This document shows positions 29,351 to 64,000 of a stretch of 64,000 nucleotides of DNA, piece by piece (the first letter of the stretch is position 1; every line of letters begins with the position of its first letter). The position numbers were made by a program, and so were the translations under genes. Source of the DNA: an uncultured Clostridia bacterium (GTDB lineage Bacteria; Bacillota; Clostridia; UBA1381); the NCBI GenBank assembly GCA_947628515.1, contig CANRAG010000002.1, positions 458 to 64,457 of the forward strand, given 5' to 3'. The notes beneath the pieces were generated by a model that was not told the origin of the DNA, searched no databases, and worked only from the letters and a program-made list of their open reading frames with translations.

Positions 29351-31645
29351 TTAATCCAATTTCATTATCATCCGCAATATTCTTTGCGCGCATACTTCAA
29401 TCTCCGACCGCGTTATTTTGCCGTCTGCCAGAGCTTGCATAACTCCGTCGCGCTGCCCCTCGGGCATTTTAATATCGTTACCTGCCTTAAGCTCCTTATA
29501 CTGTTCGGCAAGATTGCACCAGTCGGTTGTAATCATGCCGTCATATCCCCACTCACCTCGTAATATATTGGTGAGAAGCTCATAGTTTTCGGACGCTCTT
29601 TCCCCGTTTACAAGGTTATATGAGGTCATTATAACCCACGGCTGCGCCTCCTTCACACATATTTCAAAGCCCTTCAGATATATTTCCCGAAGCGCGCGCT
29701 CGGACATCATAGAGTCTGAATTATATCGGTTTACCTCCTTGTTGTTGGCGCAAAAGTGCTTTGCCGTCGCGGCAATATTCTGCGACTGAATACCACGCAC
29801 CTTCGCTGCCGCCATAATTCCCGAAACCAGCGGGTCCTCGGAAAAATACTCAAAATTTCTTCCGCAGAGCGGGTTTCGGTGTATGTTCATTGCCGGCGTA
29901 AGCCATATTCCTATATTGTTCTCCTTAACCTCTTTAGCTCCCGCGGCGCCTATCTTATACATCAATTCCGGATTCCATGTGCAGGCTATCTGCGTCGCGC
30001 ACGGAAACGCCGTTGTGCAAACGCCCGTTTTTCTATCCACCCGAAGTCCCGCCGGGCCGTCGGCAGTCATAATATTCGGTATTCCGTATTCTTCAAGCGC
30101 GCCCATTCCAAATGTGTTGGCGACTCCCGTATTCGGTTTACCGAACGTAAGCTCTACAAGCTGCAAATCCGAAAGCTGCGCCGTGAACGCGTCAAGCGTA
30201 ACCTTGCCGCTTACAACGTCGGCAAGCATCGCCTTTTCCTCCGGCGCTTTTTCCGTGTTCGCTTCATAAATGCAATCATGCCCGTGTTTCTCGGACGGAT
30301 AAAGCTTCTCGAAGCTGCCGTCGCTGAGCATTCGCTTTTCAAGCTTCTGCGGCGCGCACTGCTGCGTAAGCTGCTGTGTTATTATATCTTCCTCAACTAT
30401 ATACTCGTAATCGGCCTTAACCGTATTTCTGACCGAATTGCCTATATGGAAGCCGTACGCGCCCTTTTCAAGAACATACGCCGATTTCTTAACCTTTCCC
30501 GTATCGTCATAGCTCGCCATCGAGGCAGCTTCGAACTCCATAAACACCGTTCTTGTCTCACCCGGTTCAAGTTCCTTTGTCTTCGCGAACGCCGCCAGCT
30601 CTCTTGCGGGCTTGCCGAGCTTCCCCTGCGGCGCGCTGTAATATACCTGCACGACCTCCTTGCCGCTTATTTCGCCCGTGTTCGTAACATCCGCTCTTAC
30701 CTTTATACGCCCCGCTTCCTCGCTAACGCGAACGCCGGTTATTTCAAAGCTTGTATAAGACAGTCCAAATCCGAACGGATAGTTTACCCTGTCTTGCGCT
30801 CCCGGAATTGTTTCGAAATACCGGTAGCCGACATATATATCCTCGTAGTATTTTACGTAATCGTCTGACTCATTGAAGCTTTCCGAGGAAGGATAGTCCG
30901 AAAATCTCTTTGCGAAGGTATCCACAAGCTTGCCCGACGGATTTACATCACCGCAAAGAACGTCTGCCACAGCAAGGCCGCCTTCCATGCCGGACTGCCA
31001 CGCGTACAAAACAGCGCCTATTCCGTCGTCGGAATGATACCACTCGGTATCCGTCTGCGCGCCCGCGTTTATCACAACAATTATATTGCAAAAATTCGCC
31101 TTTACCTTGTCCACCATTTTCCGCTCCTGCGCGCTCAGGTAGAAATCTCCGTCATCCGGCTCTCCCATTCTGTCCACAAACTCGCTTGAAAAGCGGCATA
31201 TTGTTATAATTGCCGTGTCCGTAAATTTCTTCGCCTCATAAATTAGCCCGTCGGGGATTTCAGGCTCCGTGGTCTTGCCGTTTTCCGCTCCCTTAGCGTA
31301 CTGTCTTTCAACCTCGTTCTTATAGAACTCTGTTAACTCGTCAAAAAGGCACACTTTTCCTTCTCCGGCTTTAATATTAAGACCGTCGCATATGTTTCGC
31401 ACGTATTCGACCGTAACATCTCCCGAACCGCCGCCGCCTTTTACATAATCTATCTGGGCTTTTCCGAATACCGCTATTTTTGTCCCCGCCTTAAGCGGCA
31501 AAACGCCGTTGTTTTTAAGAAGAACCATGCCTTCCGCGCCCACCGTCCTCGAAAGCTCGATATGCTCCCCGGACGCCGTAACCCTTTTGCCTTCCCTGCC
31601 CAACGGCAGACAAGGCGCGTAATTTGCTCTTGCCCATTTTTCCAT
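29351..31645 (-). CDS. GH3 beta-glucosidase-type enzyme with permuted domain order (C-terminal sandwich + Fn3-like domain first, catalytic barrel last)
   Basis: 764 aa. The N-terminal part (VLLKNNGVLPL...VLYAWQSGMEGGLAVADVLCGDVNPSGKL...FGFGLSYTSF...EVVQVYY) matches the usual GH3 C-terminal and Fn3 regions. The C-terminal part (DGPAGLR..., KHFCANNKEVNRY, GYDGMITTDW) matches the catalytic (beta/alpha)8 domain with its nucleophile Asp. There is no signal peptide. Confidence 0.85.
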   Translation of the reverse strand: MEKWARANYAPCLPLGREGKRVTASGEHIELSRTVGAEGMVLLKNNGVLPLKAGTKIAVFGKAQIDYVKGGGGSGDVTVEYVRNICDGLNIKAGEGKVCLFDELTEFYKNEVERQYAKGAENGKTTEPEIPDGLIYEAKKFTDTAIITICRFSSEFVDRMGEPDDGDFYLSAQERKMVDKVKANFCNIIVVINAGAQTDTEWYHSDDGIGAVLYAWQSGMEGGLAVADVLCGDVNPSGKLVDTFAKRFSDYPSSESFNESDDYVKYYEDIYVGYRYFETIPGAQDRVNYPFGFGLSYTSFEITGVRVSEEAGRIKVRADVTNTGEISGKEVVQVYYSAPQGKLGKPARELAAFAKTKELEPGETRTVFMEFEAASMASYDDTGKVKKSAYVLEKGAYGFHIGNSVRNTVKADYEYIVEEDIITQQLTQQCAPQKLEKRMLSDGSFEKLYPSEKHGHDCIYEANTEKAPEEKAMLADVVSGKVTLDAFTAQLSDLQLVELTFGKPNTGVANTFGMGALEEYGIPNIMTADGPAGLRVDRKTGVCTTAFPCATQIACTWNPELMYKIGAAGAKEVKENNIGIWLTPAMNIHRNPLCGRNFEYFSEDPLVSGIMAAAKVRGIQSQNIAATAKHFCANNKEVNRYNSDSMMSERALREIYLKGFEICVKEAQPWVIMTSYNLVNGERASENYELLTNILRGEWGYDGMITTDWCNLAEQYKELKAGNDIKMPEGQRDGVMQALADGKITRSEIEVCAQRILRMIMKLD

Positions 31646-31800
31646 AAAAAAACTCCTTTATGTATAATTTACTCATAAGCGCGTAAGCTTCCCGCCAAAC
31701 GCACTCCTTTAATACTTGCTTCGCTTTAGATTATATACCGGTTTCCCGTCAAAATCAACATCAAGAAAACAACTTTTCAGAGAAAAATCCAAACTTATAC

Positions 31801-31833
31801 AAAAACGCCGTATCCAAAAGATACGACGTTTTT
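31801..31833. terminator. Bidirectional rho-independent terminator
   Basis: AAAAACGCCGTATC-CAAAA-GATACGACGTTTTT: a 10-bp stem (one mismatch/wobble) flanked by A5 and T5. It lies 17 nt downstream of the stop of small ORF P2. Confidence 0.6.
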
Positions 31834-32041: not shown

Positions 32042-33850
32042 TTATTCAATCGTGAATGTGGCCTTAACATCTGCCGGCGCGCCAAGAAGTATTACCGAAA
32101 ATACCGCGTTGCCGCCTTGCATATTACCTATTTCAAAGGTTTTCTCAAGCGTCTTGTTATCGGTTTCGCTTGTGAAAACGCCCTTAAACGATTTATGTGA
32201 AAGATCCACTGTCACATCCCAGAAATATCCCGCGTTACTGCTATCATCATCTGTCTTTACGACCTCTTTCCGGTCGGATTGGCCTATATCCGGCGTTGCA
32301 GTCGGCTCCGCCGTGGGCGTAGGCGTCGGGGTCGCCTCCGGCCAGCCTGACGCCGGAGGCGGAATCTCGTCCGTCTGATACGCCGTCATAGAATGAATTT
32401 CCCAGTTTACGGTCGTGGGAATCTCCATCACGCCGTCGCCTTCACCAACATTGAAGTCATCACGCTGCGGGATCGCAACAGGCCAGAGCCTGAAATTACC
32501 CGAGCCATAATTCTCAATAGTTGTTAAATCCTTATTGCTGTTTTCGTCTATGCTATAATCCGCTCCGTCATAGCTGTAATAAGTTTTTGCGCATTGTGGA
32601 TTTTTTTCATTGCCGTTTGGTGAGATAATAAAACGCATGGTATGCATTTTATCCTTGTCGGCTTCAACAATCTGCTTTCCCCTCCACGTCATACCATTGA
32701 CTTCACTGATACAGCTTCCCTCATGGGTAAGCTTAAGACCTATATACGGAGACTCTGCTGAATAATCCTCAAGAGAAACTTTAAACCGCACATCAAGCAC
32801 AATATTCTTATTCGTTACAAAGCGTTCGCCCGGAATCTTAAATGTTGTTTTGTATTCGCTCGCTTTCTTTTGCTCAACCTTTATCGGCGCGTCCGACACG
32901 GTTCTCGGCTTGTCCGAATAAACCCTTGTCGCTCCGCCTGTGCCGAAAAATGAAACGTCAATACTGCCCTCCTGCTTGATTGTGCTTATAGAGTCGTCAA
33001 AATATTTTTTATCGCTCAAATTAAGGATATACTCCTTGTCCGTCTCCGACGGGGTCGGCGTCGCCTTCGGCGGCTCGGGTATCTTGTCCGTTTGGTATGC
33101 CTTAAACGAGTGGAATTCCCAATTTACCGGCGTGTCAAGCACAGATCCATCGTCTGTATTATGTTCGTCTCTGCCTCCGCTCGGTATTGATGTCGGCATA
33201 AACCTTAACTGCGCGGTTTCATCATTTTCTGCAACATAGCCCCAGTTTACCGCGGTCTCCGCAACAGCGCCGCCGGTTTTTGTCTTGTAATCCGCGCCGT
33301 CAAGACTGTATTTCACAACGGCTTTTCCATCCTCCTTGCTTAACACATAGCGCATATGATGCAGTGTATCTTTCTCACTCTCCTTGAGCTGAATTCCTCT
33401 CCATTCCATGCCGTCGCAATTGACCAAGTTATTTGATGTGTATAATCTCAGTCCTATATACGGTGACGGCTGAGCATAATCGTCAAGATATACCTTAAAC
33501 TCAATGTCAACTACTGTGTTCTGTGCGGTTGAAAATGCCTTTGCTTCTGTCCAGAAAGTGCCCTTCCAGTCCGACATCTTTTCCTGTTTTACCTTAATCG
33601 GTTTGTCTGTATCCTTCTCCCAATCTTCACAGGTTATGCTTGAACCTTCACCTCCGTAATAGTAGAGATTTGCGCTTCCTTGCTGCGTAGTTGTATTGTT
33701 TGTATGGTTAAAATACTTTGCGTCACTGATATTAAGAATATAATTGGGCTCCTCCGCCGACGCAAACGGAATGTACAGCGAAACGAGCATGGCGGCGCTC
33801 AAAAATGCCGCCAATATTCTTTTACGGTACTTCTGTGTCATGTTTTTCAT
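32042..33850 (-). CDS. Secreted protein: signal peptide, two copies of an unassigned ~220-aa module, PT-rich linker, conserved ~85-aa C-terminal domain
   Basis: 602 aa. Signal peptide ...SLYIPFASAEE. The modules are marked by YILN(I/L)SD.KYF..., ...FKV.L.DY...SPYIGL(R/K)L... and VNWE(F/I)(H/Y)S(F/M).AYQTD. The linker is PEATPTPTPTAEPTATP. By eye about two-thirds identical to residues 1-500 of the 1142-aa protein at 41428-44856. Confidence 0.8.
   Translation of the reverse strand: MKNMTQKYRKRILAAFLSAAMLVSLYIPFASAEEPNYILNISDAKYFNHTNNTTTQQGSANLYYYGGEGSSITCEDWEKDTDKPIKVKQEKMSDWKGTFWTEAKAFSTAQNTVVDIEFKVYLDDYAQPSPYIGLRLYTSNNLVNCDGMEWRGIQLKESEKDTLHHMRYVLSKEDGKAVVKYSLDGADYKTKTGGAVAETAVNWGYVAENDETAQLRFMPTSIPSGGRDEHNTDDGSVLDTPVNWEFHSFKAYQTDKIPEPPKATPTPSETDKEYILNLSDKKYFDDSISTIKQEGSIDVSFFGTGGATRVYSDKPRTVSDAPIKVEQKKASEYKTTFKIPGERFVTNKNIVLDVRFKVSLEDYSAESPYIGLKLTHEGSCISEVNGMTWRGKQIVEADKDKMHTMRFIISPNGNEKNPQCAKTYYSYDGADYSIDENSNKDLTTIENYGSGNFRLWPVAIPQRDDFNVGEGDGVMEIPTTVNWEIHSMTAYQTDEIPPPASGWPEATPTPTPTAEPTATPDIGQSDRKEVVKTDDDSSNAGYFWDVTVDLSHKSFKGVFTSETDNKTLEKTFEIGNMQGGNAVFSVILLGAPADVKATFTIE
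32083..32189. repeat. Direct DNA repeat copy 1 (C-terminal-domain coding segment)
   Basis: A 107-nt stretch that differs at only 2 positions from 33922-34028. Similarity extends over about 32045-32335 vs 33884-34175. Confidence 0.9.
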
Positions 33851-33880: not shown

Positions 33881-35758
33881 TCATTCAACTGTGAACTTGG
33901 CCTCAACATCTTTCGGCGCGTCAAGAAGTATTACCGAAAATACCGCGTTGCCGCCTTGCATATTATCTATTTCAAAGGTTTTCTCAAGCGTCTTGTTATC
34001 GGTTACGCTTGTGAAAACGCCCTTAAACAAATCATGCGAAAGATCCACCGTCACATCCCAGAAATATCCCGCGTGACTGCTATCAGCTGCTGTTACGACC
34101 TCTTTACGTTCGGGTTGGACTATATCCGGCGTTGCCGTTGGCGTAGGCGTCGGTTCAGCTGTGGGCGTCGGGGTGGGTTCCGGCTCCTTATTGCCGCCGT
34201 CCGATTTGATCGAAACATCGTCAAGCATGATGTAGTTATTCAACATATTACTGGGCTGACCAACTTTTAATATCGCTACGGTTACGGTATCCTTCTCATC
34301 TGAACTCATTATTGTTCTTATAAGCGCGTCATCGCGCGCCGTAACATCAATCGTCTCACCATTTATATTGAAATTTATTTTACCCTTTGCCACATCGTAC
34401 TCAATCTTAACGTCACGCCATTCGCCAAACTCCCAATTTAATGTTTTTTCCGATGTTGTTCCCGAACTCAAAACTTCCCCTGCGTATACGGGCGGCCATA
34501 TACTTCCTGAGCTCTTCATTTGTCCGTGTACTACTGGATCTACTGTACCCACCGTGTCTTCAAACGTAAGTATTCTGTCTGCCGGGGTTGTTTTCGCATC
34601 TTTGAAAAACACGCCTTCTTCGGTTCCGTCCGCTATATCTACAGACAAATCATACTTACGCACTCTCTCCCAACCGTCTTTTTGATCAAATCCGTCCGGG
34701 TCTGAAATCAAAGCCTTAAAACTTATTTCGAGCTTTTCCTTAGGCTTCTTCACGGTGTAGCGCACGGCGCTGTCAAAACTTTGCTCGTCGGATCCATGTC
34801 CCCTTGTACTTTTAAGTATCTTATTTGACGGGTTTTTCGGATCCTTTTCAACAATTGTCTGATAATTTATAGCGCTGAAACCACCTGAATAGTTTCCTCG
34901 GCTTATCAATCCGCCTGTTCTTATTCCGTTTTGCATCGGAGCCATTCCCACCGTGTCCGCTTCAAAATCGCTCCCCGCCTCGTTGGTTATTTCATTCTCG
35001 TATCTGTACAGTCTGAAATTATCAAAATACACGTCCCCCGTGGTAAGCATTTTAAGTATTATCTTAACAGGATTCTCTAAATTCAAACCGTTATAGTTCT
35101 CGAGGTCAAAGTATGCCTTATCATATGTCTGTGGATTGGCAGCAGACGCCGTATAGTTCAGTCTGCCTTGCCAATACATGGTGAGCTTTGTGCTATTCGA
35201 AGCAAAATTGCTGAAAATCATTGTATTAGGTATCCAAATGTTAGGATAATTAGCAACCCAACCGTCGTTAATTTTTTTATCATCGACAATAAATACATTG
35301 CTTCCATCGTATTTTATCAATCTAATTTGTTTCTCCTCCTGCTCCACGATAATTTCAAAACTCGACAAGTCGGGGTCTTGGTGTCTTAGTACGGAAAAAT
35401 CGAACGCAAAGTCTTTTGGCAGCGTTCCGTCGTAAAGCGTAACTGCGTTTTCCTCGCCTTTCTCCGCAGCGGACAGCTTCAAAACATGATTGGCTTTGTC
35501 CGTCTCAAAAAGCGCGTTATACGCGTCATCAGTTTTTATTTCGACAAACGAGCTTCCCATCGGTGAGGAAACTATTTCCGCCGACAAGTTCCCGCTTGTA
35601 TCCGGCAGCTGTCCGTCCTCAAAGTCACGAATCATAAACACAGGATCCGCCACCGCGGGATTATCCGCCACCGCGGCAAACTGCGGGATTAGAGAACACC
35701 CTATAGCTGCCGCCGCCGCGAGAGCCGTCAATTTGAATTTTTTCATTTTCTTTCTCAC
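33881..35758 (-). CDS. Secreted protein: signal peptide, jelly-roll/CBM-like domains, PT-rich linker, same ~85-aa C-terminal domain as the 602-aa protein
   Basis: 625 aa. Signal peptide MRKKMKKFKLTALAAAAAIGCSLIPQFAAVA. Lectin-fold-like strand ends are visible (VYFDNFRLYRY, IMLDDVSIKS). The C-terminus EPTPTPTAEPTPTPTATPDIVQPERKEVV...AGYFWDVTVDLSH...NMQGGNAVFSVILLDAPKDVEAKFTVE is nearly identical to the 602-aa protein. Confidence 0.8.
   Translation of the reverse strand: MRKKMKKFKLTALAAAAAIGCSLIPQFAAVADNPAVADPVFMIRDFEDGQLPDTSGNLSAEIVSSPMGSSFVEIKTDDAYNALFETDKANHVLKLSAAEKGEENAVTLYDGTLPKDFAFDFSVLRHQDPDLSSFEIIVEQEEKQIRLIKYDGSNVFIVDDKKINDGWVANYPNIWIPNTMIFSNFASNSTKLTMYWQGRLNYTASAANPQTYDKAYFDLENYNGLNLENPVKIILKMLTTGDVYFDNFRLYRYENEITNEAGSDFEADTVGMAPMQNGIRTGGLISRGNYSGGFSAINYQTIVEKDPKNPSNKILKSTRGHGSDEQSFDSAVRYTVKKPKEKLEISFKALISDPDGFDQKDGWERVRKYDLSVDIADGTEEGVFFKDAKTTPADRILTFEDTVGTVDPVVHGQMKSSGSIWPPVYAGEVLSSGTTSEKTLNWEFGEWRDVKIEYDVAKGKINFNINGETIDVTARDDALIRTIMSSDEKDTVTVAILKVGQPSNMLNNYIMLDDVSIKSDGGNKEPEPTPTPTAEPTPTPTATPDIVQPERKEVVTAADSSHAGYFWDVTVDLSHDLFKGVFTSVTDNKTLEKTFEIDNMQGGNAVFSVILLDAPKDVEAKFTVE
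33922..34028. repeat. Direct DNA repeat copy 2 (C-terminal-domain coding segment)
   Basis: See 32083-32189: 105/107 identical, same orientation, 1839 bp apart. Confidence 0.9.
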
Positions 35759-36017: not shown

Positions 36018-36060
36018 TTAGGTATTGATTACTATAATACGGAAACGGAGGTTCATAAGG

Positions 36061-40401: not shown

Positions 40402-41394
40402 TTAGTCATAGCAAAACTCCTGATGCGTTTTAATAAACTCAACAAGCTCGTCAACCTGCGTGTATGCCATCGCGACCACGGTGTCCGCAGCTCCGTAGTA
40501 AATGGCAATTCTGCCCGTGGGCGCGTCGCATAGCGCCGCGCACGGGAATACCACGTTTGGAACGTCGCCCACGCACTCATACTGTGTGCGCGGCGCGAGC
40601 AGGTACGGTTTAGCTCTGTACTTAACCTTCCACGGCTTGTCCGCGTCAAGAATAGCCGCGCCCATACTGTAGTTTAAACCCTGACAGGTTTCCAATACGC
40701 CGTGGTAGAAAAGCAGCCAGCCTTCTCTTGTTTCGATGGGGATAGGGCCTGCGCCAATTTTTACCCAGTCCCACGCGCTGTCCGGCGACATAACATGCCT
40801 GTGTCTGCCCCAGAATGTCATGTCGGGACTTTCACTGTAGAAAATATCGCCGAAATTAGTATGTCCGTTATCACTCGGACGGCTTAGCATGGCGAAGTTG
40901 CCGTTTATCCGCTTCGGGAACATTACCCCGTTTCTGTTACAGGGCAGAAACGCGTTTTCAAGCTGGTAAAACTTATCAAAATCGAACGTGTACGCCACTC
41001 CGATTGTAGGGCCGTGATAGCCGTTACACCATGTCACGTAATATCTGTCCTCGATAAAACACACTCGCGGATCATAACCGAAAACAAAATTATTTATCTC
41101 GTCGTTATCGCTTATGAACTTAATCGGATTGGGTTTTATCTCCCAGTTAATTCCGTCGCTGCTCCTGCCGCAGTACAGCTTCTGCACGCGGCATGTGTCA
41201 TCGCTTCTGAACACCCCGCGAAATTCACCCTTATACGGCACGACAGCGCTGTTGAATATGCTGTTGGAATTTTTTATCGCATCCCGCGTTATGATGGGAT
41301 TTTTCGAGCTTCGCCACACAACGTCGGTACAGCCTTTGGGTCTGTCCTCCCACGGCATGTTCTCGATTGCGCTGCCTATTATCATATTGCTCAT
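40402..41394 (-). CDS. GH130 beta-mannoside phosphorylase/hydrolase-like enzyme
   Basis: [61 protein letters not shown] and YSMGAAILD show the typical 5-bladed propeller GH130 pattern. ATG 41394 is the likely start; the track's 41412 is TTG. Confidence 0.8.
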
Positions 41395-41427
41395 ACCGAT
41401 TAATCCTTTCAATTCTTAATGTTTCTG

Positions 41428-54262: not shown

Positions 54263-55144
54263 TCATTCCTTTACCGAACCTACCAGCACTCCCTTTACGA
54301 AATACTTCTGTAAGAAAGGGTATATGCACAGAATGGGCACGGTTGATACTATAATCAAAGCATATTTAACAGTCTCGCCTATATCGGGTCTGTTATCACT
54401 GTTTATAACGGTGCTGTCCGCCATAGTGTTCTGCAGCAAAATCTCCCTTAATACGAGCTGGAGCGGGTAGCGCTCCCTTTCGGTGCGCAGAAATATCATT
54501 GCGTCAAACCATGAATTCCAATGCCCGACGCCGTAATATAGAATCAGAACCGCTATAGTCGGCATCGAAAGCGGAATTACAATCTTAAACAGAATACCTA
54601 TATGGCTCGCTCCGTCCACGCGCGCGGCCTCTTCCAAACTGTCCGGCAGCGACATGAACGCCGTCCGCAGAATAATCAAATAGAATGTATTTATAACGCG
54701 CGGGATTATAATCGCCCACAGACTTCCGTCAAGGCCGGCGTCCTTTACCGTAAAATAAAACGGAACAAGCCCGCCGCCGAAATACATTGTTATGACTATC
54801 ATAATCATGAGCGGTTTGGATAGGATAAAATCCCGCCTTGAAAGTATATACGCGGCTATAGAAGTCATGATTATATTTAAAGTACTTCCCACCGTGAGAA
54901 CAAACAGCGTGTTTAAATAGCCCCTTAATATCGCGGGATTTTGTTTTACAACGCCGTACGCGCTTAAATCAAAGCCTTTTGGCCAGATCAGAATGCCCTG
55001 ATAACGCATCATTTCAACATTATCGCTCACGGACGCCATCAGCACGTGCCATATCGGATACAGACACACTACCATGATGCATGTGAGAAAGATACAGTTT
55101 ACGATGCTGAATACGGTTTCTCCTTTTGATCTCTTTATCTTCAC
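54263..55144 (-). CDS. Carbohydrate ABC transporter permease (LplC/MalG-like)
   Basis: 293 aa with 6 TM segments. The EAA loop is LEEAARVDGASHIGILFKIVIPL. Confidence 0.85.
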   Translation of the reverse strand: MKIKRSKGETVFSIVNCIFLTCIMVVCLYPIWHVLMASVSDNVEMMRYQGILIWPKGFDLSAYGVVKQNPAILRGYLNTLFVLTVGSTLNIIMTSIAAYILSRRDFILSKPLMIMIVITMYFGGGLVPFYFTVKDAGLDGSLWAIIIPRVINTFYLIILRTAFMSLPDSLEEAARVDGASHIGILFKIVIPLSMPTIAVLILYYGVGHWNSWFDAMIFLRTERERYPLQLVLREILLQNTMADSTVINSDNRPDIGETVKYALIIVSTVPILCIYPFLQKYFVKGVLVGSVKE

Positions 55145-55165
55145 TCTGATTCGCTTCTCCCTTCG

Positions 55166-56131
55166 TTACCACAGCGCGGTGTCCTGAACTCTTTTGCTTA
55201 ACCAGTTGGAGCCGAACAGGAAAATCATGCTTACTACCGAGTTAAACAGACCTACCGCCACCGAGTAGCTGTAGTTGAACTCCAAAAGACCTTTGCGGTA
55301 TACAAACGTCGATATTACATCCGCTGTACTGTATATTGCTTCATTGTAGAGCAAAATTATCTTTTCATAGCCTACACCGAGAATACTTCCCAGGCGGAGT
55401 ATGAGCATTACAACTATAGTCGGCATAATGCCGGGAAGTGTGACATGCAGCGTCTGTTTCCAGCGTCCGGCGCCATCGATGGCAGCCGCCTCGTACAATT
55501 GCTGGTCAATGCCCATAAGAGCCGAAAAATATACTATCGAGCCCCAGCCCATCTCCTGCCATATCTCGGAAATCACATATATCGGGACAAAATATTTCGG
55601 GTTGTTTAGCAGGCTTGAGTCCCCGCCCGTGATTGAGTTCACCAAACTGCCCACAACTCCGGTATCCGATACGAAGGTCTTTATCATACTGCATATGACT
55701 ACCATTGATATGAAATGAGGGAGATACGAGATTGTCTGAACCGTTTTACAGAAGTATTTGTTTCTGACCTCATTTATAATAAGCGCCAATATTATCGGCG
55801 CGGGAAATCCGAATACAATGCTTGTTCCGCTTATAATAAGAGTATTGCTTAGAAGGCGTTTAAAATATATGCTCCCGAAAAATTGCTTAAAATGCTTAAG
55901 TCCCACAAATGTGCTGCCGAATATTCCGTCCTTCGGACTGTAATCCGTGAACGCCATATACGCGCCCAGCATCGGTTTGTAACAAAAATACAGATAATAC
56001 AGAACTATCGGTATAGCCAAAAAGTAAAGCTCGTAATTTCTGGAAAAATCCTTTTTCAGCCTTTTTCTCAAAGTGGTTTTTGTCAAAGCATCCGCCCGTT
56101 GGGCGGATGCTTTCAATCTGTTTGTCTTCAT
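55166..56131 (-). CDS. Carbohydrate ABC transporter permease (LplB/MalF-like)
   Basis: 321 aa. The EAA loop is YEAAAIDGAGRWKQTLHVTLPGI, and the N-terminal basic tail is typical of LplB-type permeases. Confidence 0.85.
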   Translation of the reverse strand: MKTNRLKASAQRADALTKTTLRKRLKKDFSRNYELYFLAIPIVLYYLYFCYKPMLGAYMAFTDYSPKDGIFGSTFVGLKHFKQFFGSIYFKRLLSNTLIISGTSIVFGFPAPIILALIINEVRNKYFCKTVQTISYLPHFISMVVICSMIKTFVSDTGVVGSLVNSITGGDSSLLNNPKYFVPIYVISEIWQEMGWGSIVYFSALMGIDQQLYEAAAIDGAGRWKQTLHVTLPGIMPTIVVMLILRLGSILGVGYEKIILLYNEAIYSTADVISTFVYRKGLLEFNYSYSVAVGLFNSVVSMIFLFGSNWLSKRVQDTALW

Positions 56132-56154: not shown

Positions 56155-57753
56155 TTACCTTGTTTTATATCTTTCATACGCTTCCTGGTATACTTGCACA
56201 TACTCGTCAACTCCGATGCTCTTGAGTTGATTTAAATATTCGTCGTAGTCGTCTATTGACATTGTGCCCAAGATAAAGCTCATAAACGACTCCGAGGTGT
56301 ATGTGTCAAGGTCACTCTTTATTCGCGCTATTCTATCGCTTTCCTCGGTTGTGAGAAGCAGCCTCGGAAGCTGTGTCTTATCCGCGTCGTTATCCGACCA
56401 CACCTCCAGGGCTTTCTTCTGTTCCGGAAGGCTCGCGCTCTGTTCCATATATCGCGGATCCTGAACAAACGGACCGTTTCCGTTCGGACGGGCGTAAATA
56501 TACAGAGCGTCCGTAAATGATTTTCCGTCCGGGTTATTTGTTATAATATCCGTATATGTGGGGTATCCGTCTATCATGTTATAGCTTACGCCCTCCTCGC
56601 CGAAGTTAAAGAGCATATGCCCCTCTTCGCTGTAAGCGTAGTCAAGGTATCTCATGGCAAGCTCAACGTCCTTGCAGCTTGAACTTATGGATGCCGAACC
56701 TGCTGCCTGAACCATATTGTCAAACTGTCCGAAGCGCACTCTTTCGCCCTTCTTCAGCGACGGGTACGGCGCCGCCACAAGCTTGAAATTCGGATCGACA
56801 GACTTCATTGCCGACGTCCACTTACCGATGCCGCCGCCGACATTTCCTATCATAGCGCCTGTTTTGCCGTCAAGGACGTTTGAGTCGAGTATTTTCGAGT
56901 CAAGCGTAGCAACGTTTTTATCTATGAGCCCTTCCTCATACCATTGATGCATTGTTTTTATAAATTCCTTATAGCCCGGCTCCGCTTCGCCGTATTTAAC
57001 CTTTCCGTTGTCGATATACAGACCGCTGCGCACGCCGTACGCGCCGGAGAACGCCGCTGACGACTTTAGTGAACTTGTAAGGAAACTAAGAGGAGCTGCC
57101 ACGCCCTTCTGCTCCTTAAACGCCGTCAAAACGGTATGCCACTCGTCTATCGTGGTCGGGACTTCAAGATTTAATTCGTCAAGCCAGTCTTGCCTGAGCA
57201 TAAGTCCGCAGAATACGATAAGCGACTTATCTCCTCTTATAAACGGGAACGAGTAATATATTCCGTCGTCGGTCTTGCACATCTTATCGACATCCGGATG
57301 CTCCTCAAGATATTTGCAGAAATTGGGCGCGAATTGCAGGTAGTCGTTGAGAGGGATTATATACTCCTCCTCAATCGCCTTGCTCGGCCCGCCCGGATAA
57401 TTATAAAAATCTATCTCCATTATATCCGGATATTCCCCCGACGCGAGCATCATATTATTTTGCTCGCCGCTGGAGGGATGGGTGAACTTAACGTCTATAC
57501 CCGTTTTTTCCTTTACCGCTTTATAGAACGGTAAATCGGCAAAGTTTGTCACGCCCGCCGTGCTCTGATTTGGGAATTCAACCCAATATGTAAGAGTTGT
57601 GGACGACTCTATGGGATATGTGTCTCCGTACTTCGCGTCCGTCGGTGAAGCCGATGTTTTTACCTCGTCTTTCTTTTCGCCGCAGCCTGACAAAATGCCG
57701 GTCGTAAACATTGACATCGCCGCTATCGCGGCAATAAACGATTTCCTTTTCAT
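56155..57753 (-). CDS. Extracellular solute-binding lipoprotein (LplA-type, large family-1 SBP)
   Basis: ATG 57753 (GAGGAG 7 nt upstream) gives MKRKSFIAAIAAMSMFTTGILSGC, a lipobox. The ~530-aa size is typical of LplA/YtcQ SBPs. No ATPase gene is in the locus, which is usual for this transporter type. Confidence 0.85.
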   Translation of the reverse strand: MKRKSFIAAIAAMSMFTTGILSGCGEKKDEVKTSASPTDAKYGDTYPIESSTTLTYWVEFPNQSTAGVTNFADLPFYKAVKEKTGIDVKFTHPSSGEQNNMMLASGEYPDIMEIDFYNYPGGPSKAIEEEYIIPLNDYLQFAPNFCKYLEEHPDVDKMCKTDDGIYYSFPFIRGDKSLIVFCGLMLRQDWLDELNLEVPTTIDEWHTVLTAFKEQKGVAAPLSFLTSSLKSSAAFSGAYGVRSGLYIDNGKVKYGEAEPGYKEFIKTMHQWYEEGLIDKNVATLDSKILDSNVLDGKTGAMIGNVGGGIGKWTSAMKSVDPNFKLVAAPYPSLKKGERVRFGQFDNMVQAAGSASISSSCKDVELAMRYLDYAYSEEGHMLFNFGEEGVSYNMIDGYPTYTDIITNNPDGKSFTDALYIYARPNGNGPFVQDPRYMEQSASLPEQKKALEVWSDNDADKTQLPRLLLTTEESDRIARIKSDLDTYTSESFMSFILGTMSIDDYDEYLNQLKSIGVDEYVQVYQEAYERYKTR

Positions 57754-58005
57754 GGGATGCCTCCTCTTTCTTATTGTAACCGGCAATATAAGCCGATAAG
57801 TCTTTTTATTATGATATAATAATATTAACATACCTGTCAGCTTAATGTAAACGTCAGCAATTTAACGTTATAAGACAAAATTAAATGTTGTTTGGCGCTC
57901 TTTAAGTCGTTTTCCAACCAAATAACATCATAATTACAGTTTGCATTGCTTTTTTGAAAATCCCGCTGTATAATAAAAGAAATAAAAATATCAGGAGGTA
58001 ACAAT

Positions 58006-59517
58006 ATGGGACTGCCGTTTCAAGTTAATAGGAATTTAACATATGTAAAAAACCCGCAGGTGGAGAAGAACACGTTTATAGGACGAAAGCTGATAACCGG
58101 TGAGCTTCCCGCTTATGAGGACGTTAAGGATATGCTTCCGAAGCCGGTGTTTGACGGTCATAACGACGTCATAGAATGTTATAACAAGGCATGGGAGCTT
58201 GCATTCGGAAATCTCAGGCACGCTAACGCGGACGCGGGCTTTGTCTCTGACTTTATCGACACCGCATTCAACGGCTTTTTGTTTATGTACGACTCCGCGT
58301 TTATTGTAATGTTCGGAAAATATGCGGAAAGATTTTTCAACTTCCAGCAAACGCTTGACAATTTCTACTCGCATCAGCATAAGGATGGATTTATTTGCCG
58401 CGAAATATGCGAAAGCGAACCGGGCGAGCAGTTTTCCAGGGACGACCCCGCCTCCACGGGACCGAACGTACTCCCGTGGGCGGAATGGGAATACTACCTT
58501 TCCACCGGCGATATAAACAGGCTGTCGCGCGTGTTCGATCCGCTGTGCGCATACCACCGCTGGCTGCAGCTGAACCGCTCCTGGCCCGACGGCAGCTACT
58601 GGAGCTGCGGTCTTTCCAACGGTATGGACAATTCGCCAAGGCCGCCAAAGGGCTATGATTCCAATCTCTCGCACGGATTTATGAGCTGGGTAGACACCTG
58701 CGCCCAGCAGTATCTGAGCGCTATAACACTGATTGACATGTCTAAGGTGCTCGGCCGCGCGGATGAAACCGCCTGGTTAAAGGATGAGGCAAAATTGATT
58801 GCCGACATTGTCAACAACACGATGTGGAGTGAAAAGGACGGGTTTTATTATGACAAATACAGAGACGGCACGTTAAGTGACGTTAAAACTGCCGGAGCGT
58901 ATTGGGCTCTCCTGGCGGGACTTGTGCCCGGGGAGCGATTGGAGCGCTTTGTCGCGCACCTTAACAATGAGAACGAATTCAAACGCCCGAACCGCGTTCC
59001 GACTCTTTCGGCAGACTCTCCGTTCTATGAGCCGAATGGCGGATATTGGCGCGGTTCGGTATGGGCGCCGACAAACTATATGATTCTCGCGGGCCTGCGC
59101 CGCGCCGGCTGTCACAGAACGGCGTATGAAATCGCCTGTGACTACCTCAAAAATGTCGTTGATGTTTTTAACGAAACGGGAACTCTGTTTGAAAACTACG
59201 CTCCGGAACGCGCCGCCAAGGGCGACCCGGCAATGCCCGACTTTGTGGGATGGACAGGTCTTGCGCCCATTTCCATTCTCTTTGAATACGTATTCGGCAT
59301 CATCCCCGACGCGCAAAACCGAAAAATCACATGGTATATCAATAGGACGGAGCGCCACGGTATTATGCAATACCCGCTCGGAGACGCGACGGTCAATCTG
59401 ATATGCGAGTCCCGCGGCTCCGACCGTGACAAGCCTGTTGTTCGCGTGACGTCCGATCGCCCCGTCACCGTTAAGGTGATATGGTCCGGCGGCGATAAGA
59501 CCGTTATCACAAAGTAG
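58006..59517 (+). CDS. GH63/GH37-like (alpha/alpha)6 glycoside hydrolase (MGH1/YgjK-like), cytoplasmic
   Basis: 503 aa. GLSNGMDNSPRPP (the GMDNSPR block of GH63-like enzymes), WAEWEYY and GYWRGSVWAPTNYM are present. The RBS is CAGGAGG. It is divergent from the ABC operon. Confidence 0.55.
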   Translation: MGLPFQVNRNLTYVKNPQVEKNTFIGRKLITGELPAYEDVKDMLPKPVFDGHNDVIECYNKAWELAFGNLRHANADAGFVSDFIDTAFNGFLFMYDSAFIVMFGKYAERFFNFQQTLDNFYSHQHKDGFICREICESEPGEQFSRDDPASTGPNVLPWAEWEYYLSTGDINRLSRVFDPLCAYHRWLQLNRSWPDGSYWSCGLSNGMDNSPRPPKGYDSNLSHGFMSWVDTCAQQYLSAITLIDMSKVLGRADETAWLKDEAKLIADIVNNTMWSEKDGFYYDKYRDGTLSDVKTAGAYWALLAGLVPGERLERFVAHLNNENEFKRPNRVPTLSADSPFYEPNGGYWRGSVWAPTNYMILAGLRRAGCHRTAYEIACDYLKNVVDVFNETGTLFENYAPERAAKGDPAMPDFVGWTGLAPISILFEYVFGIIPDAQNRKITWYINRTERHGIMQYPLGDATVNLICESRGSDRDKPVVRVTSDRPVTVKVIWSGGDKTVITK

Positions 59518-59579: not shown

Positions 59580-62500
59580 TCAGTTTTGTTCTCCGGTCAC
59601 GTCCAGATATGTCTGATAATATCTGTGTCCAAATTCAATCTGACCTACCGCGCTTATATGGGTATAGTCATTTTGCCATACCGCCGTATCGTTTTGGTAA
59701 GCGGTACTCTCCGCGCGTGATAGCAGCGGCGTCGGGTCGGTCGATGACGCAAACCCCATATTCGGGATATGGCCGAGTTCTTCCCGCACTCTCGCGTTGT
59801 GTATCACATACGCCGATCGGTTTGTCTCGCTTAGTCCTCCCAATATGAGCGGAACCTCCGGAGCGTCCAAAGCGGCGCGCAAATCATAGACCAAATTTCG
59901 CAAACGTCTCGGATAGGACGCGTCCTGCGCGTCGGACTCACCCTGATGCCATAGCAATCCTTTAAACTCCGCGTCGCCGGAAAGAGCCTGCTTCATACGT
60001 TCGATAGTATTGGCATACCCGTTTACGACATCTTTGATTTTATCATCCTTTGCCGCGTCCTTCTCATAAGAGAGAATAGACGAGCCGGAGGACGACTGTA
60101 CAACCAGTCCTATATTAATATCCGGGTTTGCTGCGGCTGTATCCTCCGCAAATTGATAGCCCATGTTGATACCGAACTGCGGTCCCACATTATCGCTTGC
60201 GTCCGACCAGCCTATATACGGATATTCGGTGCCAATGCCGTTTACTCCGGAATAACGCCGATACGGATGCTGCGCCTGTTCAAAATTGCCCTCTTTATTG
60301 AGAAGCTTCACATTGTCTGAAATCGGGATGTCCACGCCCTCCGCCACGGGGTTGTTCGTGCCGGACATATTGGACTGCCCTATCATCAGATACACATATG
60401 TGGACGGCTTCACCTGCGCTCTTACAGAACCGACTGTAAGTCCGTCTTTTTGAGCCGTTATTACGGCAAAGCCTTCGGATTTCGCCGTTACGCTTCCGCT
60501 CTCGTCCACCGAAGCAACCCGTGGATTGGAACTTGTCCATATAACATCCGCCGCGGCAGCGGTAAGCTGCCCTTCTCCGTGCATTGGCAGGAACAGGTTT
60601 TGCATCTGAAGTCCCTGTCCTCCTCCAAACCGAACAGGACGGCACAACGGTCTTTGGCTGTCGGCTGTCCACAGATATGCCGCCAGTGTTCCATCATTTC
60701 CAAAATCATCCGGAAGCTTGACGCTCGCGCTAACCGGTTCAAACTCCGCTTGCGCTGTCGCCTTTGCGGCGGCGGCCGAAATCAGCCGACCGTCTTTATA
60801 CGCGGCAAGGATAAGCGTTACATCTTTCTCGTCCACAGCGTCCTTTGCCGAAATCTCAGCCCGCGCGTATACGCTGCCGCCCGGTACAATTCCGGTTAAC
60901 GGTTTTGTCATATCCGAATCCTCGTACAGTCCCAAATTACGCGTTACAATATCGGTTTTAATCGCTACGGTCTTGGTTTTACTGCACTTACCCAATCTGT
61001 CGGATGCGGATAGAACAATGTTTCCGTCGGCTATTTCCGGCGAAATACGCAGCGTCCGGCCGTGTATCGACGCAGCATCTTCCGCCGCTCCCGACACCGT
61101 CCAGACAATGCCCTCCGGATTTGCCGGATTGGTATCGCCGTCTTTGTCCGTGAACACTGCGGGCAGTTTGTACTCCAACGCCTCCGCCGGATTGATTTTA
61201 TCGGGTACATCACTCAAATCAATATCCGTGACTTCGGTGTACGAAACGGTCATATTATTCAATATGCCCTGTGTTTTGGCGTCCTTTATAAGTACCGTGT
61301 TGTATTTAACATAACGCGCGTCGGTAGTTGGCAGATAATATACCTGACGACCGCCATATTCCGGCAGCCCTCCCGCGTAAATATCGGTAATCGGCGTATA
61401 TTGCAATCCGTCCCGTGACGCGGAAACGGAAAAGCTCATAACCGAAGAGGGATCGTGCTCCAAAACAATCTTGTTGAACTTTGCCTGTTTTCCCAGATCC
61501 AGTACAGTGCCATCGAGCTGGTTCACATCGCTGTCGCCCACTCCGGTTTCGTAAAGAGCCGACTGCCATGCGCCGGAGCTGGCGGGAGCCTCCAACGGCG
61601 TGCCCTCTTTTGGCTCCTCCGTCTCCTCCTCACCGATAGAACGCTTTATTTCAAAGAAATCGTATGTCCATGTTACCGTCGTGCCCAAATCCTGCGCGTC
61701 GGTATTGCTCTTGCCCTCCGGCTGCACAACCGGGTAGAAAAGAATTTTTTCAAACCGTTCGAGGTCCGTGGAGAACTTGGCGGATGCTATCTGCTGCCCG
61801 TTCAATTTCCCCGTTATTGTGCCGGCGTCGGGGTCTATAACATATACAAGCGTCTGGTCTATGTTCTCCGCGTCCGCGGAAAGCGGGATATTCCCCGTCA
61901 TATCCAGGAACTGGTTCGTCGGCGCCCAATAAACCAGCGTCATCTTCGCTGTAGTGCCCTTACTGTAATCATCCGCTTTAATTCGGAACTTTATGGTAGC
62001 GGTAATGGGCTTATCCAGCAAAATCGGCTGTGGGTCCGTAACCTGAAGTCTCTGCTGGTACGCGGAGGACAGGGATTGCTTTACCTCGAATTTATCATCG
62101 TCCTCAATCAGCTTCTGCGAGAAATTTTTATCGGTACCGGCATTGTAGTACTCATGCAAAATTGCGCCGACAGACTCCGTCTGCGTAAGAGTGGCGTTTT
62201 TAAATGACATATTCTTGTCAATTAACAGCCGATCGTTTCCGGGTACGTAAGGCGTGGCTGTCGGCTCCTCTCCCTCTCCCACGGCGGTTACTTTAAAATA
62301 ATCGATTGTCCATGTGATAGGCGTTACGAGCTTTTCCGTATTCTCGCCCGTGCCCCCGTTTGTGTTCTGGGCTATGAGCTGGAACATAAGCGTGCCGAGA
62401 TTGGCAACCCTTGCAGGGTCATATGAACTGCTGTAACATTCCGCTCCGTCCAGGGTCGCCGTGACCGTGTGTACGGTAGGATTTATGGTGTAGATTAAAT

Positions 62501-63641
62501 CATGCCAACTATCCGCGGTCTCGGATGTTATGGGAATAGTCTTGTTCATATCCGCCCAAAGCGCGCCCTCCTGCAAAACCAGCCGCGCCTTGACGAACGG
62601 AACCGTATCATAACTGTCCGCCGCAAGCTTAAATCTCAATGACACGTGATATGATGTACTGTTCAGCGTCACCGATGAAAGGTCTGCGGAGCGTATTCTG
62701 AAATTGTTTCCCGAATTGCCTGTCTGACGCGCCACAAGCGCGTCGCCGCCCTCGGATACTTTAATATCCGCGCCTATCCAGTTCATAATTACGGCGGTAT
62801 CTCCCGACGCGGCGTCCTTCCACGCGTTTTGTGAGATACTGTTATCCCATCCGTAGGATGTCTGCTTGTCAACGGAGAACACATCGCCGCCGGGCGCCGG
62901 AGTCGTCTCCTCGCCGCTGCCCTCGCCTACGGCCGAAGCTTTTAAGTAGTCAACAGTCCATGTGATGGGACTGTTAAGCGCAGCGTTTTCCTCGATTTGA
63001 CCGTTGGTATTCTGCGCTATCAGCTGGAATTGGGGCGTCCCGAGATTGGTATTTGCCGCCGCGTCAAACGAACCGCTGTAACACGCGTCGCCGTCCAGTG
63101 TGGCTGTTAGAGTATGCGCGGCGGGATCTATGGTGTAGACAAGCTCGCGCCACTTGTCCGCGTCGCTCTCTGTCAGCGGGATGTTCTTGTTCATATCGGC
63201 GTAAACTCCCGCCCATACCATACGGGCTTTTACAAACGGCGCTGTGTCATAGTTTTCCGCCGCCAGCTTAAACCGCATGGAAATCCGGTAGATTTTGCCG
63301 CTTTCCAACCGTGTAGAGGACATATCCGCCGCGTTAATACGCAGCTGATACGCCGATGTGTTTTTCTGATTAATAACGAGCGAGTCCCTGTCCTCGGACG
63401 CTTTAATATCGCAGTTTACCCAGTTGTTGACCACGGAAACGCCGCCGGACAAATCATCCTTCCACGCGAATTGACTAATACCGTTATCCCATCCGTAGGA
63501 TGTCTGCTTGTCAACCAAAAACAACACCTCCTCATTCTCGTCGGGGTCCACCGCAAGAACGCTCGCGTTTGGGCACATCAATAGCAATATCATTGACAAC
63601 AATAACGCTATCCTACTCGAAATCCCTTTTTTTAACAGCAT
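59580..63641 (-). CDS. Secreted 1353-aa esterase: three tandem unassigned modules, discoidin-like domain, Ig-like domains (one Big_2), C-terminal SASA/DUF303 acetylesterase domain
   Basis: Signal peptide ...LMCPNASVLAVDP. Modules 1-3 end in ITWTVDYLKASAVGEGSG, ITWTIDYFKVTAVGEGEE and VTWTYDFFEIKRSIGEE. The Big_2 region is IWTSSNPRVASVDESGSVTAKSEGFAVITA. The SASA region is YVYLMIGQSNMSG...GLLWHQGESD...YTHISAVGQIEFGHRY. Confidence 0.8.
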   Translation of the reverse strand: MLLKKGISSRIALLLSMILLLMCPNASVLAVDPDENEEVLFLVDKQTSYGWDNGISQFAWKDDLSGGVSVVNNWVNCDIKASEDRDSLVINQKNTSAYQLRINAADMSSTRLESGKIYRISMRFKLAAENYDTAPFVKARMVWAGVYADMNKNIPLTESDADKWRELVYTIDPAAHTLTATLDGDACYSGSFDAAANTNLGTPQFQLIAQNTNGQIEENAALNSPITWTVDYLKASAVGEGSGEETTPAPGGDVFSVDKQTSYGWDNSISQNAWKDAASGDTAVIMNWIGADIKVSEGGDALVARQTGNSGNNFRIRSADLSSVTLNSTSYHVSLRFKLAADSYDTVPFVKARLVLQEGALWADMNKTIPITSETADSWHDLIYTINPTVHTVTATLDGAECYSSSYDPARVANLGTLMFQLIAQNTNGGTGENTEKLVTPITWTIDYFKVTAVGEGEEPTATPYVPGNDRLLIDKNMSFKNATLTQTESVGAILHEYYNAGTDKNFSQKLIEDDDKFEVKQSLSSAYQQRLQVTDPQPILLDKPITATIKFRIKADDYSKGTTAKMTLVYWAPTNQFLDMTGNIPLSADAENIDQTLVYVIDPDAGTITGKLNGQQIASAKFSTDLERFEKILFYPVVQPEGKSNTDAQDLGTTVTWTYDFFEIKRSIGEEETEEPKEGTPLEAPASSGAWQSALYETGVGDSDVNQLDGTVLDLGKQAKFNKIVLEHDPSSVMSFSVSASRDGLQYTPITDIYAGGLPEYGGRQVYYLPTTDARYVKYNTVLIKDAKTQGILNNMTVSYTEVTDIDLSDVPDKINPAEALEYKLPAVFTDKDGDTNPANPEGIVWTVSGAAEDAASIHGRTLRISPEIADGNIVLSASDRLGKCSKTKTVAIKTDIVTRNLGLYEDSDMTKPLTGIVPGGSVYARAEISAKDAVDEKDVTLILAAYKDGRLISAAAAKATAQAEFEPVSASVKLPDDFGNDGTLAAYLWTADSQRPLCRPVRFGGGQGLQMQNLFLPMHGEGQLTAAAADVIWTSSNPRVASVDESGSVTAKSEGFAVITAQKDGLTVGSVRAQVKPSTYVYLMIGQSNMSGTNNPVAEGVDIPISDNVKLLNKEGNFEQAQHPYRRYSGVNGIGTEYPYIGWSDASDNVGPQFGINMGYQFAEDTAAANPDINIGLVVQSSSGSSILSYEKDAAKDDKIKDVVNGYANTIERMKQALSGDAEFKGLLWHQGESDAQDASYPRRLRNLVYDLRAALDAPEVPLILGGLSETNRSAYVIHNARVREELGHIPNMGFASSTDPTPLLSRAESTAYQNDTAVWQNDYTHISAVGQIEFGHRYYQTYLDVTGEQN

Positions 63642-63698
63642 AAAAATACCTCCTTTTTGTATCAGATAATATAAGTAACTTATTCAATTCCATCCAAA

Positions 63699-64000
63699 TC
63701 ATTGCTCACTGTTATTTAAAACACGCTTATACGCGTCATAATATCTATGTCCGAACTCAATCTGTCCCTTGGCGCTGAAATGGACGTAATCGTCATCATT
63801 TCCCGAATAGCAGCCCGTGGCGTGTCGGCTCGGTATCATAGACGGCTCGGTTGACGACGCAAAGCCGTACGCGGCAATATAATCAACCTGCTGCGCCGAC
63901 TTGATATTATGCGGTCCGGCGCCAATATTATCCTCCGAAAGCCCTCCGTTTATAAACGGAACCTCCGGAGCGTTAAACGCAAGTCTGAAATCGTAAAGCA
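63699..64000 (-). CDS. 3' end of another SASA/DUF303-type esterase gene (5' part beyond the window)
   Basis: My own translation is ...LYDFRLAFNAPEVPFINGGLSE...GFASSTEPSMIPS...DDDYVHFSAKGQIEFGHRYYDAYKRVLNNSEQ*. It parallels the C-terminus of the 1353-aa protein (...VYDLRAALDAPEVPLILGGLSE...YTHISAVGQIEFGHRYYQTYLDV). The stop is at 63699-63701. Confidence 0.6.
   Translation of the reverse strand, partial: LYDFRLAFNAPEVPFINGGLSEDNIGAGPHNIKSAQQVDYIAAYGFASSTEPSMIPSRHATGCYSGNDDDYVHFSAKGQIEFGHRYYDAYKRVLNNSEQ

Follow-up and report, generated by a model that had tools for sequence, protein, structure and literature searches.

We analysed a 64,000-nucleotide stretch of DNA (the window in the following; positions 458 to 64457 of contig C2) from the draft genome, 2.9 Mb in 224 contigs, of an uncultured gut Clostridia bacterium. 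The window contains about two thirds of a Gram-positive polysaccharide-utilisation locus (PUL) of ~52 kb, and the remainder of this locus is found on a second contig, C54. Judging from the encoded proteins, we propose with moderate confidence that the locus targets an O-acetylated acidic heteroglycan with xanthan-type side chains. The side chain is most likely beta-Man-(1,4)-beta-GlcA-(1,2)-alpha-Man on a beta-glucan, and the polymer would be xanthan or another bacterial gum related to it.

In the proposed mechanism, an AraC-type membrane sensor would turn the locus on, and secreted SASA and CE4 esterases would take off acetyl groups at the cell surface. The polymer would be held by a recurrent module (module A) of the enzymes and of non-catalytic proteins, with two SLH proteins as a wall-anchored platform, and a secreted PL8 and a PL35-like lyase would cleave it at 4-linked glucuronate by beta-elimination. 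The unsaturated oligosaccharides would then be imported by an LplABC-type ATP-binding cassette (ABC) importer. In the cytoplasm, GH88 would take off the unsaturated uronate, after which GH38 would release alpha-mannose and GH3 beta-glucose. GH130 and a phosphomutase would turn beta-1,4-linked mannose into mannose phosphate, and two GH63-like enzymes would act on some alpha linkage. The enzyme families, their catalytic residues, the order of the genes, and their conservation are computed results, from which we infer the substrate, the order of action, and the cellular location.

Extent of the locus across two contigs

Contig C2 stops 739 bases past the end of the window. Exactly 77 bp are common to the right ends of C54 (17.4 kb) and of C2, the latter taken as its reverse complement, and this was the sole end overlap of at least 20 bp for either end of C2 or C54 when the ends of all 224 contigs were compared. 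Joining the two contigs resulted in one unbroken open reading frame (ORF) of 1102 aa with two modules, an F5/8 domain, and a SASA domain, a layout that parallels that of the 1353-aa esterase in the window. The related genome G010, a metagenome-assembled genome (MAG) of an uncultured Clostridia bacterium that is 98% complete, has the gene order GH63b, AraC-type regulator, solute-binding protein, two permeases, PL35-like lyase, p516, and both SLH genes. The 77-bp overlap, the continuous 1102-aa ORF, and the matching gene order in G010 together show that C54 and C2 form one locus.

C54 adds a second GH63-like gene, the gene of a 774-aa AraC-type membrane regulator, a secreted PL8 of 1319 aa, and a 1956-aa CE4+SASA esterase, and contributes three further esterase domains in all. 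The joined locus has the features that define a Gram-positive PUL, namely a regulator, an ABC importer with a lipoprotein solute-binding protein, secreted as well as cytoplasmic carbohydrate-active enzymes (CAZymes), and conservation across genomes. An inspection of the N-termini revealed that lyases, esterases, and binding proteins have signal peptides, which are lacking in the glycoside hydrolases. The families named in a first-pass annotation of the window (GH3, GH38, GH88, GH130, CE4, SASA, GH63-like, the importer, and the phosphohexomutase) were all recovered at their positions (Table 1).

Two lyases and the question of backbone cleavage

The PL8 encoded on C54 (PL8_1319) has a signal peptide, and two copies of module A flank it. 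It reached 591 bits with the xanthan lyase of Bacillus sp. GL1 (2e24), 564 bits with the Paenibacillus nanensis enzyme, 413 bits with chondroitin AC lyase, and ~319 bits with hyaluronate lyases, and its top solved relatives are the xanthan lyases 2e24 and 6f2p. Asn194, His246, Tyr255, Arg313, and Tyr315 of xanthan lyase are all kept. As PL8_1319 is closest to xanthan lyases, the xanthan-like substrate suggested by the first-pass annotation is strengthened, although it is still one that we infer. The same annotation had stated that no PL8 is visible, which is true inside the window but is an artefact of the contig edge: the PL8 expected of a xanthan locus is present on C54, outside the window.

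The second lyase, which had been described as heparinase II/III-like, turned out to be PL35-like with an intact catalytic triad. Its residues 215-817 match the PL35 structures 8khv (E 3e-48), 8khw (E 4e-40), and 9o3q (E 2e-36). The relationship to the GAGases is distant (E 1e-49), and the N-terminal domain is covered much better than the C-terminal domain. Asn385, Tyr439, and His589 align with the catalytic Asn192, Tyr246, and His401 of GAGase II (residues from PMC12088678). The H-x-H-x-D metal motif is kept, with His591 and Asp593 aligning with His403 and Asp405, two of the four manganese ligands, and the other two ligands, Asp421 and His457, were not alignable. The lyase has Gln-Asn in place of the His-Asn of GAGase III, which is active on alginate. 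At the C-terminus, a CBM32-like domain is similar to two uronate-binding modules, AlyQ and YeCBM32. The characterised PL35 enzymes are glycosaminoglycan lyases that depolymerise glycosaminoglycan polymers (PMC12088678, PMC11262172).

This known activity would also fit a locus for host glycans, in which the lyases and GH88 would act on hyaluronan, chondroitin, or heparosan, and GH130, GH38, the GH63-like enzyme, and SASA on N-glycans and O-acetylated sialoglycans. UhgbMP, a close relative of the GH130 in the locus, acts on Man-beta-1,4-GlcNAc of N-glycans, the SASA domain is named after sialate O-acetylesterase, and CBM32 modules often bind Gal or GalNAc. Such a locus is nevertheless very unlikely, as PL8_1319 is nearer to xanthan lyases than to those for chondroitin or hyaluronate and has retained both Arg313 and Tyr315 as mannose-pyruvate contacts. 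The locus moreover contains no sulfatase, GH18/GH85, GH20, GH33, or GH2 galactosidase, and its GH3 matches beta-glucosidases and not NagZ.

The proposed cleavage of a xanthan-type glycan raises the question of the endo-acting enzyme. GH88, an alpha-mannosidase, a beta-glucoside-cleaving enzyme, and esterases are all encoded in the locus as in known xanthan loci, but an endo-xanthanase of family GH5 or GH9 is not: neither family was found in C54 and C2, and GH9 is absent from the whole genome. To this extent, the first-pass annotation rightly noted that a recognisable endo-depolymerase is missing, but the PL35-like lyase with its triad and the GH5 enzymes on contig C11 speak against a complete lack. 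Five PL8 genes and six GH5 hits are available in trans across the genome, with GH5 only on other contigs.

Contig C11 contains another PUL (about 1-38.5 kb), which is cut by the contig end. It encodes a two-component AraC regulator, binding proteins, a CBM11 protein, and permeases, together with a GH5 (851 aa), SLH proteins including a giant one, GH88, GH94, GH38, a second GH5 (1819 aa), and GH1. The gene content of the C11 PUL matches that of the published xanthan locus of R. UCG13 (bioRxiv 10.1101/2021.06.02.446819; PMC10881899). Our host genome is not thereby shown to be R. UCG13, since the 1819-aa GH5 is without the Listeria-Bacteroides repeats described for RuGH5a. In the 27 genomes of the genus, an orthologue of the 1819-aa GH5 was found only in G002 (80% identical).

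With six GH5 hits and an R. UCG13-like locus in the genome, the C54-C2 locus could in principle be an accessory xanthan locus, for which the C11 GH5 enzymes or neighbouring bacteria cut the backbone and which itself deacetylates, trims side chains, and consumes oligosaccharides. Cross-feeding of B. intestinalis on xanthan oligosaccharides is documented (bioRxiv 10.1101/2021.06.02.446819; PMC10881899). We consider this accessory role unlikely, as lyases and esterases that are secreted and carry modules, together with a wall platform, suggest a polymer and not oligosaccharides as the target, and because of the distribution of the locus in related genomes. Among the same 27 genomes, orthologues of the PL35-like lyase and of the module-flanked PL8 occur in G010 only, where the lyase is 72% identical. 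G010 keeps the whole gene set on three of its own contigs, with the core on C3, CE4_1142, GH130, an SGNH esterase, and GH38 on C52, and a p625-like protein, p602, PL8, and the CE4+SASA esterase on C15, and its genome contains no GH5 and no GH9. A Ructibacterium MAG has a related locus with PL8, AraC, ABC genes, a PL35-like lyase, a Big_5 protein, two SLH proteins, and a three-module protein, to which a GH2 beta-mannosidase, a four-module SASA esterase, a GH28-like gene, and a GDSL esterase are added. This MAG yielded a single GH5 hit of 28 bits, and its locus recurs in dozens of public metagenome assemblies. The presence of the locus in relatives that are free of GH5 or poor in it argues that it does not depend on the GH5 of C11. 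A canonical endo-enzyme encoded elsewhere, which the first-pass annotation had named as an outcome that would refute its view, is thus available in the form of the C11 candidates, but G010 retains the gene set without any GH5 or GH9.

A third lyase locus lies on contig C1 (36.8-57.7 kb) and consists of a solute-binding protein, permeases, an F5/8-domain PL8, an SLH pair, GH88, and two more PL8 genes. There, a CBM32-bearing PL8 directly follows the permeases, in the slot that is held by the PL35-like lyase in the window locus. As G010 keeps the whole gene set without GH5 or GH9, as characterised PL35 enzymes depolymerise polymers, and as the PL8 of the C1 locus holds the same slot after the permeases, we propose the PL35-like lyase as the best candidate for the main depolymerase. 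No literature was found that ties DUF4962 to xanthan, or xanthan to GH130 with PL8.

In Bacteroidota, the PULs with the closest homologues pair the PL35-like lyase with SASA, CE7, GH2, and GH3, and in one case with a sulfatase and a CBM11 protein. Fusions of PL35-like and SASA domains exist (P0061, P0067), and their PULs contain SusC/D, two PL35-like genes, GH2, CE7, and ROK. Since PULs with such fusions have no GH88, GH92, or GH5, they are not the PUL that B. intestinalis has for xanthan oligosaccharides, and the lyase could not be linked through them to the unclassified PL-CE encoded there. A conserved PUL of freshwater and soil Bacteroidota (L040, L086) encodes SusC/D, a pair of PL35-like lyases, of which one is fused to SASA in some cases, CE7, an unassigned 601-612-aa protein, and a GH2 beta-mannosidase/GlcNase-like enzyme; extra genes are a sulfatase, GH3, and a CBM11-T9SS protein in L040, and DUF3823 and a ROK kinase in L086.

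Esterases, module A, and a proposed surface platform

Six acetylesterase domains (SASA, CE4) are distributed over four secreted proteins of the joined locus, and one of these proteins, CE4_1142, has an orthologue in G010 with 63% identity. The large secreted proteins without a glycoside hydrolase or lyase domain that had been noted in the window, two of them SLH-anchored, are real. Many of the secreted proteins share module A (~225 aa). An iterated hidden Markov model search found nine copies in four window proteins (602, 1142, 516, and 1353 aa), and C54 encodes four more, on the flanks of PL8 and N-terminally in the 1102-aa esterase.

An AlphaFold2 model of module A, generated from an alignment of 22 copies, is an all-beta ConA-like jelly roll with a pLDDT (predicted local distance difference test) of 91. 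The Foldseek matches were legume lectins, clostridial-neurotoxin binding domains, GH16, and PL7, at template-modelling (TM) scores of only 0.3-0.45, and a sequence search of the PDB with the module A profile gave no match. No residue is invariant across the 22 copies, and there is in particular no invariant acidic or basic residue. In a profile search of 1.84 billion cluster representatives, 32 proteins carried the module at E<=1e-10. Eight of these carriers were checked, and three had a PL8, two a SASA, two a CE4 (one of them also a SASA), and one a Listeria-Bacteroides repeat. Module A thus has what defines a carbohydrate-binding module (CBM), a discrete beta-sandwich fold that is joined to CAZymes and lacks catalytic residues, and we read it as a rare, polymer-specific candidate binding module that is probably non-catalytic.

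The secreted proteins p602 and p625 share their C-terminal ~80 aa (80% identical, 32042-32300 and 33881-34130), which follow a PT linker, and are otherwise unrelated. A stretch inside the 1956-aa esterase is 42-48% identical to the body of p625, which is conserved in three proteins at 42-56% identity. This body has no PDB relative, p625 has no Pfam or NCBIfam match, and the comparison of its body with module A by hhalign gave a weak match (31% probability).

A domain that is conserved in three proteins yet has no relative in Pfam, NCBIfam, or the PDB could be a new backbone hydrolase, be it in p625 or its copy in the 1956-aa esterase, and the same could hold for the 601-612-aa partners in Bacteroidota or for a GH63-like enzyme. 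ConA-like folds include the catalytic domains of GH16 and PL7, and a ConA-like DUF1080 protein of Thermogutta has been reported as an endo-xanthanase (PMC10881899). However, none of the acidic or basic residues of module A is invariant in its 22 copies, lectins lead its weak fold matches, and SLH_957, which is of a kind common to many loci, shows no fold of an enzyme. We therefore regard a hidden hydrolase as quite unlikely, and the six orphan secreted proteins look more like binding or anchoring proteins.

The modelled SLH_957 consists of an SLH trimer and a chain of small beta-barrels, for which Foldseek found only SLH and OB-like matches and no glycoside hydrolase or lyase fold. In a PDB sequence search, the match was confined to the SLH part. 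At least 11 paralogues of SLH_957 (868-1058 aa, 22-27% identity) are encoded in the genome, on contigs C1, C5, C8, C9, C11, C16, C28, C35, C38, C39, and C60. At least five of them (C1, C5, C8, C28, C38) adjoin a large C-terminally SLH-anchored protein, and those on C8 and C38 also an ABC binding protein. The SLH_957/SLH_578 pair therefore looks like a generic wall-anchored surface platform of the PULs in this lineage, and not like a substrate-specific enzyme.

A wider but less probable reading can be offered tentatively. The PL35-like lyase would found a branch of heparinase II/III-like enzymes that is active on xanthan-type glycans and, with the secreted PL8, would open a lyase-only route to an acetylated xanthan-like gum for gut Clostridia that have neither GH5 nor GH9. 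Module A would be a new CBM family with specificity for the side chains of this polymer, and the SLH pair would be a generic counterpart, in Gram-positive bacteria, of the Sus proteins at the surface.

Cytoplasmic enzymes, substrate, and known systems

A circular permutation has placed the Pfam C-terminal and Fn3-like domains of the GH3 before its N-terminal catalytic domain. The PDB matches of this enzyme are beta-glucosidases, not NagZ, and 5wug aligns in one stretch, so this solved enzyme appears to have the same domain order. The GH38 has orthologues in G010 (73% identity) and Ructibacterium (50%). The GH88 gave a weak Pfam match (33.8 bits) but a strong structure match, with the unsaturated glucuronyl hydrolase 1vd5 of Bacillus sp. 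GL1, an enzyme of the xanthan and gellan pathways, at the top. In G010, GH88 is absent at the matching position, and an intact SGNH/GDSL esterase of 230 aa is encoded there; in the window, GH88 occupies the lost body of this esterase gene, a sign that a recent rearrangement may have brought GH88 into the locus.

The GH130 matches UhgbMP (4udg, E 2e-159) and RaMP2 (5ayd, E 5e-147) over residues 9-331, which corresponds to similarity with these phosphorylases over the full length. The salvage of mannose by GH130 and a phosphomutase, as put forward in the first-pass annotation, is therefore plausible, and the phosphomutase beside GH3 probably converts Man-1-P or Glc-1-P. The GH63-like enzyme of the window had only weak PDB and NCBIfam matches, and the cleaved linkage would be alpha. 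A 45% identical paralogue of the solute-binding protein heads the PL8 locus on contig C1.

The spacers along the string from the solute-binding protein to GH130 are 8-58 bases long, except for the p516/lyase pair. The longest ORF of p516 (49560-51110) overlaps the stop of the lyase gene by 77 nt. Since an internal Met (MFMRKFF, about 50972) opens the signal peptide, and since this length matches orthologues of 463-488 aa, this Met and not position 51110 is probably the true start.

Table 1. Genes and features of the window, in window coordinates, and the genes added by C54
Feature	Position	Strand	Assignment based on
SASA esterase	3-3431		Pfam
Phosphogluco-/phosphomannomutase	27537..29273	-	Pfam PGM_PMM I-IV; 77 b downstream of GH3
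GH3 beta-glucosidase, cytoplasmic, no signal peptide	29351..31645	-	Pfam; PDB 5wug, E 2.6e-162
p602, secreted: two module A copies, PT linker, ~80-aa C-terminal domain	32042..33850	-	
p625, secreted: ~500-aa body, C-terminal domain common to p602	33881..35758	-	
GH38 alpha-mannosidase, cytoplasmic	36025..39018	+	Pfam, four GH38 domains
GH88 unsaturated glucuronyl hydrolase, cytoplasmic	39043..40173	+	PDB 1vd5, E 6.6e-57
SGNH/GDSL esterase remnant, last 41 codons	40234..40356	-	tblastn against the ORF on G010 C52, 83% identity
GH130 (subfamily 2 type) beta-1,4-mannoside phosphorylase, cytoplasmic	40402..41412	-	Pfam; PDB 4udg, 5ayd
1142-aa secreted deacetylase (CE4_1142): two module A, CE4, third module A, small C-terminal beta domain	41428..44856	-	
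SLH_957: N-terminal SLH trimer, then string of small beta-barrel domains	44915..47788	-	
SLH_578: Ig-like domains, Gly run, PT linker, three C-terminal SLH repeats	47815..49551	-	
p516, secreted: one module A copy, Big_5 domain	49560..50972	-	
1065-aa secreted lyase: copper-amine-oxidase-N, PL35-like region, CBM32-like	51034..54231	-	Pfam DUF4962 and F5/8
Two ABC permeases, LplB/LplC type	54263..56131	-	Pfam BPD_transp_1
558-aa lipoprotein solute-binding protein, lipobox LSGC	56155..57831	-	Pfam SBP_bac_1
GH63-like/MGH1-like (alpha/alpha)6 glycosidase, cytoplasmic	58006..59517	+	PF22422, 141 bits
1353-aa secreted acetylesterase: three module A, middle region, Big_2, SASA	59580..63641	-	
Second SASA esterase, 3' part (1102 aa after joining C2 and C54)	63699..64000	-	
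1956-aa CE4+SASA esterase, xanthan-lyase-type PL8, AraC regulator, second GH63-like gene	C54, upstream of the 1102-aa esterase		

Several observations weigh against xanthan as the substrate. The xanthan backbone contains no uronate, so the lyases alone cannot depolymerise true xanthan, and the PL35 enzymes characterised so far act on glycosaminoglycans. In PL8_1319, Arg612 of the GL1 enzyme, a pyruvate contact, is replaced by Ser. In the known xanthan pathways, mannose is freed by the lyase, and no role for GH130 is obvious; this enzyme, like the GH2 beta-mannosidase of Ructibacterium and Bacteroidota, implies a beta-mannoside whose cleavage those pathways do not require. In the Bacteroidota PULs whose PL35-like lyases are the closest homologues, no alpha-mannosidase is nearby and GH88 is absent within 10 kb. 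Finally, KduI (PF04962) for the unsaturated uronate was not found in the genome, which has four GH88, five PL8, and three PL35-like genes, and the unsaturated uronate must therefore go by another route. In view of these weak points, the polymer may be a relative of xanthan, such as another acetylated GlcA/Man/Glc gum or a glucuronomannan-type chain, and not xanthan. Mannan or glucomannan and pectin were rejected as substrates: a GH26 or GH5 mannanase is missing, GH88 is present instead of GH105, and the PL8 is of the wrong type.

To our knowledge, the locus of R. UCG13 is the only one of a gut xanthan degrader that has been characterised. The C54-C2 locus resembles it in the gut Clostridia host, the ABC importer, the combination of PL8, GH88, GH38, and carbohydrate esterases, and a cytoplasmic beta-glucoside-cleaving enzyme. 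In contrast to R. UCG13, however, GH5 is missing in cis, PL8 is a secreted, module-bearing enzyme that is nearer to the polymer-active lyases of Bacillus and Paenibacillus, and GH3 replaces GH94. A PL35-like lyase, GH130, two GH63-like enzymes, and ConA-like modules come in addition, and there are six esterase domains compared with two esterases in R. UCG13. With the systems of Bacillus sp. GL1 and Paenibacillus (PMC12827396, PMC10881899), the locus shares an extracellular PL8 of the xanthan-lyase type, a GH88 closest to that of GL1, GH38, and GH3, but it differs by the lack of GH9 in the genome and by the additional PL35-like lyase, SLH platform proteins, and GH130.

As for the individual enzymes, the PL35-like lyase shares with GAGase II/VII and BcPL35 (8khv, 8khw, 9o3q) the heparinase II/III-like two-domain architecture, as judged by sequence, the Asn/Tyr/His triad, and the metal motif, but has copper-amine-oxidase-N and CBM32-like domains in addition. 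The present lyase is surrounded by mannose and glucose enzymes and acetylesterases in place of sulfatases and hexosamine genes. Likewise, the GH130 is near-identical in length and sequence to UhgbMP and RaMP2 (4udg, 5ayd) and cytoplasmic like these, but theirs are mannan or N-glycan loci, and here it is part of a locus with lyases and GH88.

Food often contains xanthan or similar bacterial gums as additives. The locus described here would be a second, differently built locus for such a polymer in a bacterium that also carries an R. UCG13-like xanthan locus, with related versions in the sister species G010 and the Ructibacterium MAG. It offers clonable candidates for a new lyase specificity, a new CBM family, and a Gram-positive surface platform that may be used in place of the Sus proteins.

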